From Candidatus Xenobia bacterium (GTDB lineage: Bacteria > Vulcanimicrobiota > Xenobia > Xenobiales > QWHO01), in NCBI GenBank assembly GCA_045863235.1, contig BTUM01000021.1, forward strand, positions 32,001-96,000: DNA of 64,000 nt. Direction: 5' to 3'. A model generated the notes under the pieces. That model was not told the origin of the DNA, searched no databases, and saw nothing but the letters and a program-made list of their open reading frames with translations. Below, piece by piece: positions 1-46,221 of the stretch; position 1 is the stretch's first letter; each line of letters begins with the position of its first letter. The translations under genes and the position numbers were made by a program.

Positions 1-1842
1 GAGCGACTCGCGCAACTGGCGCAGGCACTCGACGTAGGCGAAACCCTTGCCACCTCCACCCTCGAGTACGATCGAGACCAGTTTGCCGTTGGTGTCGGCT
101 CCCTTGCCCAGCCATTCTACCTGGCTCGGCCCCGGCTTGAGACCGGTCACGCTTTGAGGTCGGTCCTGCCAGAAATACTCGCTGATTCCCAGGGGGTCAT
201 CCTTGAAGTCGGCTGAAGCCGTGACCACGCCCGGGTCTACGTCCCCGTAGCGCTTGTCGGCAGTTGTGATCCACTCGAGCAGGCTCAGGTGGCGGCCCAC
301 ATCGGCCAGCACATCCGGCGGGAGGGGTTTTGAACCTGCCCAGAGCGCCTTCAATTCGGCCAGACCAGCGGAGTTGGCCGTAATGTTGTCCAGATCGACC
401 CCGCTGTAGTCGCTGCCAAGCGCGGTGAGCAGGCGCTGCTCCCGCTCCTCGAGCTGGGGACGGCTGGTCTGAATGGCCACCTTGACCTCGGTCAGCATGG
501 TGCGACGCTCGGAGATGCCCAGGCCGCGCAGGGTGTGGTCCACGACCTCGCCAAAGGCGATGGCCCGGTCATACGGTCGAATGGTGGTGCGAGGGGGGGG
601 GCCTTCCAGGGCCCTGAGAATGGGAGCCCGGGGAGGGGTCAGCTCGGCCGCCGGGGTCTTGAGGTTGAGCTGGATCCAGGTGCGTGCGGCGGTGGTCAGG
701 ATGTGGCTCCGACCCTTGGCGCCGGTTTCGCGCAGCAGCTTGATCCAGTGGCTCTGGACCCCCGTCAGGAGATCGCGATCCATAGCGATGGCGGCGTCGG
801 CAAACTCGGTCTTGGGGCCTTTGAGCAGGCCCTTCATCAGGTCCAGCGCCTGGTCGACCTTGGGGAAGGAGGGATAGGGGCCGATGCCCCCTTCGCTGCC
901 CAACCAGCCAGGGGTCAGGTTCTCCTTGATCTGTTCCACCGTCTGGTGCAACTCGGGGTTCTCCCGCTTGAGCCAGGGATCGAGTGTGTTGTAATAGCTG
1001 CTCAATCGCGTGGCCAGCCAGCCATAGTACAGGTTGGCCTCGGTGTAGCCTCCCAGGTTGTTGGAGCGCTCTACCAGCGAATTCACCGTTTCGCGGGCCA
1101 GGTACTCGGAGTTGCTCATGGAGCGCACGTCATTGTCCAGGTCCACGAAGACCGGAAGCTTGCCGGACTGGGACTTGTCCACCAGGGCTTCCCAGACGAA
1201 GTGGCGGTCATCGCCGGGCTGGTACGGGTTAGGCGGAGCGGGCACCGAAAGACGCCACAAGTCCATCATCTCGCGGGCTTCTCCCACGCGCTCGTCCCCC
1301 AGGTAGACGTAGGCCGAGCGAGGACTGTTGGGGCCGCTGAAGGTATCCTCGGCCAGGCGCTTGATAAAATCCGGAGCCTGCTTGAAACCGTGGCCGTCGC
1401 GACCGGGGGACAACATCTTGTAGAGATGCTCATCCACTTGCATCATCTCTTGCAGCGATAGCCCAACCGCGTCCTCGACCGCCGGACCGCCCATTTCGAG
1501 CAGTGTTGCGGTGCTTCCGGCCCACACCTCGGGGGTGCGATAGCGCAGCCAATCGACGGCGCTGAGATCGCGCCCGCCCGGGAGCCAGCTCTCTACCCGG
1601 GAAGCCTGCCAGGCGGCCACCAGGGTAGCCAGCGAGGGGGCCACCTTCACCGTGGTGCGCCCGATGGCAGCGAGCTTTCGGCCAAATCGGCTGATCTTGT
1701 CCAGAACGCCACCACTGCTGGGCGCGGGCAGTTGACGACTTTGCATGAAAGCGTCCAGCGGCTCCACCGCGGGGGAATTGGCCGACAGCGGAGGGCGCGT
1801 CGGCCCGACGGGCAGCATGGCAGTCGTCTGCTCGATCTTCAC
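1..1842 (-). CDS. Large patatin-like phospholipase domain protein, 3' end beyond left edge (absent from ORF track)
   Basis: Manual translation gives an open minus-strand frame from GTG 1842 (alternative GTG 1848) to the window edge, at least 614 codons: MKIEQTTAMLPVGPTRPPLSANSPAVEPLDAF...VSIVLEGGGGKGFAYVECLRQL. The LEGGGGKG segment matches the patatin glycine-rich oxyanion loop. The GxSxG and DGG motifs would lie outside the window. Confidence 0.75.
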   Translation of the reverse strand, partial: MKIEQTTAMLPVGPTRPPLSANSPAVEPLDAFMQSRQLPAPSSGGVLDKISRFGRKLAAIGRTTVKVAPSLATLVAAWQASRVESWLPGGRDLSAVDWLRYRTPEVWAGSTATLLEMGGPAVEDAVGLSLQEMMQVDEHLYKMLSPGRDGHGFKQAPDFIKRLAEDTFSGPNSPRSAYVYLGDERVGEAREMMDLWRLSVPAPPNPYQPGDDRHFVWEALVDKSQSGKLPVFVDLDNDVRSMSNSEYLARETVNSLVERSNNLGGYTEANLYYGWLATRLSSYYNTLDPWLKRENPELHQTVEQIKENLTPGWLGSEGGIGPYPSFPKVDQALDLMKGLLKGPKTEFADAAIAMDRDLLTGVQSHWIKLLRETGAKGRSHILTTAARTWIQLNLKTPAAELTPPRAPILRALEGPPPRTTIRPYDRAIAFGEVVDHTLRGLGISERRTMLTEVKVAIQTSRPQLEEREQRLLTALGSDYSGVDLDNITANSAGLAELKALWAGSKPLPPDVLADVGRHLSLLEWITTADKRYGDVDPGVVTASADFKDDPLGISEYFWQDRPQSVTGLKPGPSQVEWLGKGADTNGKLVSIVLEGGGGKGFAYVECLRQLRESL

Positions 1843-1964
1843 GGGCACATTATGGCAGCCGACCCCGAGCGAGTCGTTACGAATTTACTTCTTTTTGGAC
1901 AAGCATGATTTAGAAACTCTGCACTACCGAGAGCCGCTAGTGAACGGTTGGACCGGTTGGCAAA

Positions 1965-45589: not shown

Positions 45590-45729
45590 GGCAGGGGTGG
45601 TTTCTCAGGCGACCAGGGGCTTCCTGGCGATCTTGTAACCAAAGGTTGGCAATTGGGACCTGACGTTCAGGGCATGATGGCGGCGCACAAAAAGATAGAT
45701 AGAGATTTGAATGAAGAGAGGGTTTCGTC

Positions 45730-46221
45730 ATGCTTATCACCGCCGCTTCCAACCCCAGCTCCATTGCTTCCGGCCGGGCTCTCAGCGCCCCCACCGCATC
45801 GGTGGGCGGATTCGTGGACGGCTATCAGGCCGGCTCGCTGGTCGAGCCCCCGCCCCCGGGATATGACCCCACCAGCCCGGAGGCAATGAAGGTCAACACC
45901 GTGGCCGCAGCCGGCATGGTCGCCGGACTTGCCGGGGTGGTGGCCGGCCTGGCCGGAGGAGTGGTCGGGGGAGTGGCCGGAGCCATCGCAGGCGGCGCAG
46001 CTGGTTTTGCCCTGGGCCGTTTTGCCGGACTGGCTTACGATGTCAGCAACCTGGGCGGAACCGACGTGACCAACAAGACCAGCGCGGCCGGAGCCATCGT
46101 GGGCGCCGCCGCAGGAGCATTCGCAGGACTCAGCACGGGCTCGCCTCTGGCCGCGGTCATCCTGGGACTGGCGGGAGGCGTCGGGGGTGCCTGGGGCGCG
46201 GCCATGGTGGTCGATCCCTGA
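45730..46221 (+). CDS. Glycine-zipper membrane protein with low-complexity leader
   Basis: Extended GxxxG/AxxxG runs; purine-rich SD. Confidence 0.8.
   Translation: MLITAASNPSSIASGRALSAPTASVGGFVDGYQAGSLVEPPPPGYDPTSPEAMKVNTVAAAGMVAGLAGVVAGLAGGVVGGVAGAIAGGAAGFALGRFAGLAYDVSNLGGTDVTNKTSAAGAIVGAAAGAFAGLSTGSPLAAVILGLAGGVGGAWGAAMVVDP

Follow-up and report, generated by a model that had tools for sequence, protein, structure and literature searches.

We analysed a stretch of 64,000 nucleotides (G000:C21:32001-96000), called here the window, from a source genome, G000, that measures 8.36 Mb and is 97.6% complete. Close homologues come from records under the names Ca. Eremiobacterota, Vulcanimicrobiota, Ca. 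Xenobium and Ca. Bruticola. Five dispersed genes of the window, among them those of a patatin-like phospholipase and a prolyl oligopeptidase (identities with which Pfam agrees), begin with a leader that closes on a short aspartate motif (Table 1). This tag is likely to be the address label of an undescribed secretion system, because leader genes share promoter motifs with a flagellum-type export machine of the same genome.

Genes were called with a purpose-written codon-model caller (6,820 genes in G000), and every count given here depends on it. Leaders were scored in bits by an iterated model trained on G000, using a threshold of at least 14 bits on 6,427 proteins; the window contig belonged to the training half for the per-gene scores. 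Sec-type N-termini were judged by a hydropathy threshold, and the relatives compared were a set of 61 genomes. Window genes are named by their start coordinates. We found no publication on the leader or the export system, most subscription papers being outside the reach of the search.

Table 1. Leader genes and promoter sites of the window, and location of the export machine
Feature	Location	Strand	Description
Patatin-like phospholipase, 5' part	1..1842	-	996 aa, extends beyond the window; leader residues 1-35, Asp30; start GTG 1842; PF01734, E 3e-22
Weak promoter B site	1847..1893	-	12.0 bits, would rank 333/6,440; -10 box few bases ahead of GTG
780-aa orphan protein	6216..8558	-	leader with Asp30, 29.5 bits, then glycine-rich hydrophobic stretch
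Promoter A	8590..8622	-	29 bits; two TTTCAG-like repeats 11 bp apart, 10 bp spacer, TAnnnT box
346-aa protein, doubtful leader	24928..25968	-	Asp26, 5.1-6.7 bits; no known family
Moderate promoter B site, upstream of 25968	26004..26050	-	13.6 bits, rank 288/6,440
Prolyl oligopeptidase (S9)	32478..34775	-	canonical leader before enzyme domain; Asp31, D-K-V-Q-L-S, 31.3 bits
Strong promoter B	34809..34854	-	27.1 bits, rank 16/6,440 (gene in training set); GTAACA-type direct repeat and TAnnnT box
Weak promoter B site, upstream of 45730	45633..45678	+	11.2 bits, rank 364/6,440
163-aa glycine-zipper-like protein	45730..46221	+	leader with Asp30, 28.8 bits
Export machine	G000:C27:54348-79252 and C74:1-4124		export gate, ATPase complex, C and MS rings, rod

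All five motifs reported by the initial annotation are present at the positions and on the strands given for them. The further claim that the five genes share one leader was borne out for 8558, 34775 and 45730 (29-31 bits). The patatin is borderline: it scores 13.5 bits from GTG 1842 and 6.3 from ATG 1818, Asp30 existing only with the GTG start, and both of its G000 paralogues have the leader (19 and 27 bits). Its transcript is predicted to be near-leaderless. Protein 25968 is a doubtful member, since by protein sequence it scores only 5.1 bits, despite its moderate promoter B site. The Pfam scan returned no family for 8558, 25968 and 45730; 8558 has only 7 homologues, all of which retain the start and P-L-D-N-Y while the linker varies.

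A leader on several hundred proteins

In the iterated G000 model, the leader consists of M, [QINLR] and [IV], a linker rich in P/S/A/T and poor in D/E/L/I, and then P-x-D-[RSQT]-[VF]-[EQT]-L-[SG]. Its compact form is M-[QIN]-[IV], a Pro/Ser/Ala/Thr linker and D-x-[VF]-x-L-[SG] around residue 30. This N-terminus is non-hydrophobic and of low complexity, and lies ahead of the cargo domain. The D-x-[FYV] motif noticed first is above chance genome-wide, but it is the core of this longer signal.

We observed the following. At least 14 bits were reached by 292 of the 6,427 proteins (about 4.5% of the proteome; ∼21 expected) and at least 6 bits by 499 (59 expected), so the leader is far commoner than the five genes first noticed. 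Asp falls at residue 27-33 in 185 of the 292. When the model was built from odd contigs, 125/3,119 even-contig proteins scored at least 14 bits, compared with 5/3,119 shuffled N-termini and 6/1,500 internal windows. As a guard against circularity, 663 of 6,161 proteins were picked on the composition of residues 2-18 alone; D-x-V-x-[LI]-[SG] occurs within residues 19-48 in 40 of these (shuffled 1.1 ± 1.0; internal windows 2/620), and D-x-[FYV] in 198 (96 shuffled). The motif is therefore commoner than in shuffled N-termini. Nor do the leaders look like miscalled starts: start calls aside, in-frame ATGs peak 26-35 codons upstream of the motif (5.3-5.5 per 100 codons, against 0.9-2.9 in other bins). 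The non-Sec character of the leader also stood, only 5.8% of the 292 proteins having hydrophobic N-termini compared with 32.6% of the others. GxxxG-rich proteins number 50/292 with the leader and 174/5,568 without.

The leader behaves as a module. The 292 proteins fall into 236 families; 169 are without a paralogue, whereas a paralogue exists for 21 with a hydrophobic and for 41 with a plain N-terminus. Of the three prolyl oligopeptidases in G000, one has the leader (the window gene), one a Sec-type signal and one no extension; among 120 database homologues, 3 score as leaders, 59 are hydrophobic and 58 plain or short at the N-terminus. The orthologue in eight genomes of family f2 retains the start and linker only, with no separate D-x-V-x-L-S by eye, and on this ground the extreme N-terminus may be the minimal signal. 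Leader genes are mostly solitary (8% operon-like versus 37%).

Pfam was scanned for 70 of the 292 proteins, taken from leader-dense regions. No family was found for 42, so that the candidate effectors supplied by the leader model are largely orphans. Hydrolases account for 15 (three S8, C11, C92, M48, M42/M20, an ATLF-like domain, alpha/beta hydrolase, EEP nuclease, GDPD, two deiminases, amylase and GHL10), four are propellers and two are coiled-coil matches below the cut-off. Another leader protein (563 aa, 29 bits, no Pfam family) lies just left of the window, at L293:863-2554.

Among relatives, strong leaders (at least 20 bits) were found in samples of G013 (4), G007 (2) and G006 (1), and none in G053. 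In low-GC relatives the G000-trained model found 0/94 (G045), 0/46 (G049) and 1/153 (G050), although a test with the plain motif did pick up leaders. The plain motif was matched by 14/544 proteins of more distant lineages with the core FlhA clade, where shuffling gave 3.4 (0/200 shuffles); one of the 14 is a duplicate, about half resemble true leaders by eye, and what looks by eye like a clostripain-type protein is included. The plain motif gave 0/210 in G053, and 3/337 against 1.9 outside the phylum.

FlgM is among the substrates of the flagellum, whose export signals are disordered peptides at the N-terminus (PMC3372961). The suggested likeness of the leader to FlgM was seen in part: the layouts are similar, and 4 of 16 FlgM N-termini from flagellated relatives scored at least 14 bits (6/16 at least 12, best of several starts), the majority scoring lower, as weighed below.

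A flagellum-type export machine with shared promoter motifs

A search for export genes found a flagellar-type machine in G000. The region G000:C27:60720-79252 comprises flgB, flgC, fliE, fliF, fliG (two copies), fliH, fliI, fliJ, a lytic transglycosylase, a FliK-like gene, a gene for a 271-aa FlgE, fliM, fliN, fliN, fliO, fliP, fliQ, fliQ, fliR, flhB and flhA. Contig C74 contributes a second FliK-like gene, an FlhB-like gene, flgF, flgG, a rod-binding protein and a sigma-factor fragment. All eight core genes common to flagella and injectisomes are present as flagellar-type homologues, and flagellar models beat injectisome models for the core proteins (FlhA 815 versus SctV 617 bits). FliE, FlgB and FlgC are all above cut-off, and the rod proteins FlgF and FlgG are also present. 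On either side of the machine lies a conserved gene of unknown family (G000:C27:57162-57476 and 79691-80167). The first, immediately ahead of P81 (the 81-aa gene described below), encodes a three-helix protein of 104 aa, and the second, divergent from flgB, one of 158 aa; the 104-aa protein had no ESM Atlas match above 0.76 and no Foldseek match at E<=0.001.

The motility parts are missing from G000. No match to the flagellin, FlgM or FlgD families was found, and tblastn (E<0.1) with FliC, FliD, FliS, FlgK, FlgL, FlgA, FlgH, FlgI, MotA and MotB of the true flagellum of G013 also gave none; the G013 labels FlgA, FlgH, FlgI, FlgK, FliD, FliS, FliW, MotA and MotB are our reading of the sequences. 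For the stator, the sole PF01618 match of G000 sits in an ExbB-ExbD-TonB-like cluster. One member of the phylum that is in culture is a diderm without flagellin (PMC9758169).

FlhA-family matches occur in 61/61 genomes and flagellin in 16/61. Two full FlhAs are encoded by genomes with flagellin, such as G004, G013, G015 and G055, and the cluster is syntenic in G013, G007, G006, G045, G050 and G058. In a 43-row tree the second (flagellin-less) FlhAs form one clade of 19 rows with a Shimodaira-Hasegawa-like approximate likelihood ratio (SH-aLRT) support of 100; they are 62-85% identical across lineages. This clade lies inside a group (SH-aLRT 93) with Bacillota, Chloroflexota-related and the phylum's own flagellar FlhAs, apart from five SctV. 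The best trees put it among flagellar FlhA, but a 25-row approximately unbiased (AU) test did not reject union with SctV (p 0.18), so that an independent origin is favoured but not shown. Both trees were quick searches with SH-aLRT only, drawn without Myxococcus, Chlamydia or spirochete rows, and the 25-row tree omits 18 of the 43 rows.

Further FlhA relatives were seen. G000 has six more FlhA-family matches (C80:28012-29436, C3:26973-28175, C1:377631-378872, C106:14866-16857, C107:13658-15829 and C24:20419-20700); five span the cytoplasmic half only and one is weak. Relatives have up to 16 matches and small-genome relatives 2-3. Possibly these proteins are substrate adaptors for the large cargo set. 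An additional full-length FlhA of the second clade, on a long branch, lies outside any cluster at G007:C21:61640-63757. At G053:C1:2775000-2814999 and on G059:C72 the clade has a fast-evolving member whose cluster is scattered and which is not accompanied by flagellin; P81 was not found in G053 and G059 with this query, and 210 genes sampled from G053 showed no motif enrichment.

Two promoter motifs connect cargo and machine. Promoter A, TTTCAG-n5-TTTCAG-n10-TAnnnT, precedes 108/292 leader genes (held-out, 44/137 leader genes versus 26/1,200) and one P81 copy. At 61 of the 108 sites, 6-10 nt separate the end of the -10 box from the start codon, so many of these transcripts are probably leaderless. 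Promoter B is a GTTAACA-type direct repeat with TAnnnT 37-39 nt on (held-out, 28/86 versus 56/2,666). Its model, for which leader genes on contigs C27, C74 and C69 were kept out of the training set, ranked the C74 operon 9th, flgE 29th and flgB 31st among 6,440, the first P81 copy 193rd and the 473-aa gene beside it 272nd. The site before prolyl oligopeptidase 34775 is the same motif as that of the machine operons. In relatives, 13 sites ahead of flgB, flgE or P81 were tested, and 11 of them carry promoter B.

With training genes included, promoter A or B precedes 146/210 strong leaders and 214/5,421 non-leaders. Promoter-bearing genes without a full leader often start M-x-[IV] (92/382 versus 330/5,568), and for this reason the cargo may exceed 292. 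The machine in the genome and the promoter motif it has in common with leader genes support the proposal of one dedicated, type III/flagellar-like route. Sigma-28 promoters were not enriched at leader genes (GCCGATA 1/184 versus 31/5,307). As other routes, the type VI secretion system (no VipB sheath match in G000) and the type VII system (no WXG100 match in G000) were rejected.

P81, a candidate filament subunit

Three identical 81-aa genes (P81) and a gene for a 473-aa protein with a homologous C-terminus, itself without a family match, lie after flhA. P81 is found in 47/61 genomes, mostly in multiple copies, and is highly conserved. It adjoins export genes or the conserved 104-aa gene in 29/77 loci, and 412 clusters match its profile. 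Genus g4 scored 0/6, yet a P81 with 25% identity occupies the usual position in G007, so this genus is not a negative control for P81.

In the ESM Atlas, HrpA-pilin clusters ranked second and third for P81 (0.91 and 0.90), with an HrpE-like cluster at 0.88. Among weak Pfam matches, PF09589 (HrpA pilin) had the best E-value (4e-4; 10/61 P81 members), and 4 of 6 weak PF09589 matches in genomes coincide with P81 loci. In four studies, contigs assembled from RNA runs span the first P81 copy and the 473-aa gene, as well as parts of flhA; such contigs give no ranking of genes and may include DNA, and were not counted as expression.

When inspected, the P81 matches under the titles Desulfitobacterium, Bacilli and Patescibacteria looked spurious. 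P81-like segments also occur in two further records. In an 82-aa open reading frame (ORF) at L163:7896-8144 (titled Blastocatellia), a double-glycine-type leader is joined to a stretch that shares ∼70% identity with the C-terminus of P81; this ORF sits among similar short ORFs beside exporter-like genes, and a 199-aa ORF at L153:7569-8168 (Acidobacteriota) ends in a P81-like domain. Neither has type III secretion system (T3SS) genes nearby; they may represent a mimic, a decoy or a transfer.

Proposed secretion through a rod and pilus, and the alternatives

We propose, with a probability of roughly 0.58, that the leader is the secretion signal of a flagellum-derived T3SS without flagellin or stator genes, which would send ∼290 proteins out along a rod that ends in a predicted HrpA-like pilus; export, the pilus and the target are what we infer from the genes. 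The first 10-20 residues would form the minimal export signal, with D-x-V-x-L-S as an optional second, FlgM-like element. Unfolded cargo would pass FliPQR/FlhA/FlhB, driven by FliHIJ. P81 would polymerise on the short rod/hook in flagellin's place, and the 473-aa paralogue could be a minor or tip subunit. Two putative direct-repeat-binding regulators, presumably of winged-helix type given the 11-bp repeats, would switch on machine and cargo. The peptidases, phospholipases, nucleases, glycine-zipper proteins and many orphans of the cargo may have their targets on or inside other cells, for example during predation or contact with a host.

By its genes, the machine resembles a T3SS yet appears to fall outside both the motility flagellum and the known injectisomes. 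It is like a (Bacillota-like) flagellum in FlhA, FlhB, FliPQR, FliO, FliHIJ, FliGMN, FliF, FliE, FlgB/C/F/G, the FliK-like and the rod-binding proteins, and the leader resembles in layout the N-terminus of FlgM, the flagellum's late substrate. Unlike a flagellum, it has no detected flagellin, cap, junction, hook cap, L/P rings, stator or FlgM, its FlgE measures only 271 aa, sigma-28 promoters are not enriched, and the candidate substrates (∼290) are non-structural. In some relatives a machine of the G000 type coexists with a separate true flagellum.

With the Hrp-pilus T3SS (HrpA/HrpE), it shares a small helical multi-copy subunit that is weakly HrpA-like and a large co-regulated cargo with disordered N-termini. 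In contrast to that system, its core scores as flagellar, FliE, FlgB and FlgC (flagellum markers of Abby and Rocha; PMC3459982) are retained together with FliG and FliM, no secretin is linked and the signal has a definable motif and spacing. The needle-less T3SS of Myxococcales, reported to be active in prey degradation (PMC10469934), is likewise secretin-less and belongs to a large-genome, possibly predatory bacterium. The Myxococcales systems are described as being without FlgBCDEK, FliEG and needle subunit (PMC3459982), whereas the G000 machine keeps rod and C-ring and has a pilin candidate; the FlhA tree holds no Myxococcales sequence. Lysobacter enzymogenes OH11 has leftover flagellar export genes, without flagellin, that secrete hydrolases (protease and glucanase) against other microbes (PMC7688988). 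That is a strain-level remnant with three reported substrates and FlgD, while the G000 machine is a phylum-wide conserved paralogue with its own filament candidate, regulon and signal.

Several observations weigh against the proposed T3SS with a pilus. The link between tag and machine, and with it the predicted export, comes from co-regulation and analogy. Promoter B also precedes non-leader genes (182 of the 297 top sites), fliM and two P81 copies rank low or have no promoter B, and AT-rich intergenic DNA may inflate the scores in relatives. Twelve of the 16 FlgMs scored below 14 bits. P81 and the rod subunits are without the leader, and 5 of the 70 scanned proteins are normally intracellular enzymes (P450, DeoC aldolase, desaturase, glycosyltransferase and AAA). 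As a pilin, P81 lies below the Pfam HrpA threshold (PF09589 above the curated cut-off in 0/61 genomes); only 23-24% of the members of the Atlas HrpA clusters have PF09589, other families matched more P81 members (Phage_Mu_Gp45, 25/61), profile searches of the PDB with P81 were empty or at chance level, and AlphaFold predicted a single long helix with no hairpin (predicted template modelling score 0.42). Nothing found in the gene content accounts for passage through the outer membrane, there being no L/P ring genes and no linked secretin: the three secretin matches of G000 (one type II secretion system [T2SS], one type IV pilus and one lone weak gene) all lie outside the machine cluster. The lone gene (G000:C70:35090-35977; small, weak PF00263) is found outside the T2SS and pilus clusters and without promoter A or B; it is a possible outer-membrane partner.

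Of the rival explanations, one holds that the leader is a real sorting tag for something else (T2SS or type IV pilus by an unusual entry, vesicles, a chaperone, a compartment or a protease) and that the promoter marks a common lifestyle regulon. G000 does have a T2SS and a type IV pilus, promoter B also precedes the pseudopilin gene 60268 of the window, and some of the cargo is normally cytoplasmic. Substrates of T2SS and type IV pili, however, require Sec or Tat (twin-arginine translocation) signals, and the leader proteins are without them. The layout is like that of FlgM, a known flagellar substrate (PMC3372961), and motif enrichment follows the sampled lineages with the core FlhA clade rather than G053 or genomes outside the phylum. 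We consider this explanation unlikely.

It is also rather improbable that the same gate reads the leader while the machine ends in the periplasm or at the surface, as a bulk non-Sec exporter of digestive enzymes with no contacting or injecting pilus. The absence of L/P ring and secretin just described, together with that of a recognisable tip or translocon in the machine cluster, would be expected of such an exporter. The 15 hydrolases are of kinds exported by other bacteria, and the Lysobacter system secretes a protease and a glucanase (PMC7688988). Such an exporter accounts less well for a multi-copy, highly conserved, Hrp-pilin-like P81 behind flhA in 29/77 loci; an axial structure spanning the cell wall is suggested by the lytic transglycosylase and the two FliK-like rulers, and cytoplasm-type enzymes and GxxxG-rich cargo better fit delivery into cells.

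Very improbably, the N-terminal pattern has no targeting role and arises as a by-product when co-regulated genes are transcribed without leaders and constrained in how translation starts: the short distance from -10 box to start at 61/108 promoter A sites favours this view, but it cannot account for D-x-V-x-L-S at a fixed residue (27-33 in 185/292), and the motif is also found in genes with strong ribosome-binding sites and is conserved while the linker varies. An artefact of miscalled starts in GC-rich DNA, giving Pro/Ala/Ser-rich extensions with chance D-x-hydrophobic matches, is already largely refuted and hardly credible: the caller was purpose-written, 3 of 70 inspected matches were false positives (lipoprotein or Sec-type) and 25968 fits poorly, but the held-out counts (125 versus 5), the start-independent ATG peak, promoters at the right distance and the lack of any score of at least 20 bits in 306 genes of two GC-rich control plasmids of other phyla all speak against it.

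Signals for type III export are usually hard to define; here a fixed-spacing motif marks ∼4.5% of the proteome and is directly testable. Marine members of the phylum were called motile from flagellar genes and predicted to be motile and predatory, with a TXSScan T3SS result of 'no_decision' (PMC9259500). The proposed T3SS changes this reading of motility, as 45/61 genomes gave no flagellin match. Known injectisomes are described as one exaptation of the flagellum, in which rod genes were lost and secretins gained (PMC3459982). If our proposal is true, a conserved machine with a rod and a pilin candidate is a second case of exaptation or a missing intermediate. More tentatively, and at somewhat less than even odds, Eremiobacterota may possess a phylum-wide injectisome made from a duplicated flagellar basal body, with rod and C-ring kept, an HrpA-like pilin replacing flagellin and several hundred effectors bearing an FlgM-like signal, either as a second independent origin or as a living intermediate toward the known injectisomes.

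Other features of the window are as follows. Two groups of pilin/pseudopilin-like genes and a PilC/GspF gene occupy 52339-62674; given the strong promoter B site (25.6 bits) of pseudopilin gene 60268, the regulon may also include a type IV filament. An AbiEii-type nucleotidyltransferase with a small upstream partner at 5283-6219 is a probable type IV toxin-antitoxin pair. A TPR/FlgD-Ig protein with an orphan upstream neighbour lies at 11185-13873 and an FG-GAP/Ig-like lipoprotein at 27866-30727; the proteins of these two regions have ordinary signal peptides where the start is clear.

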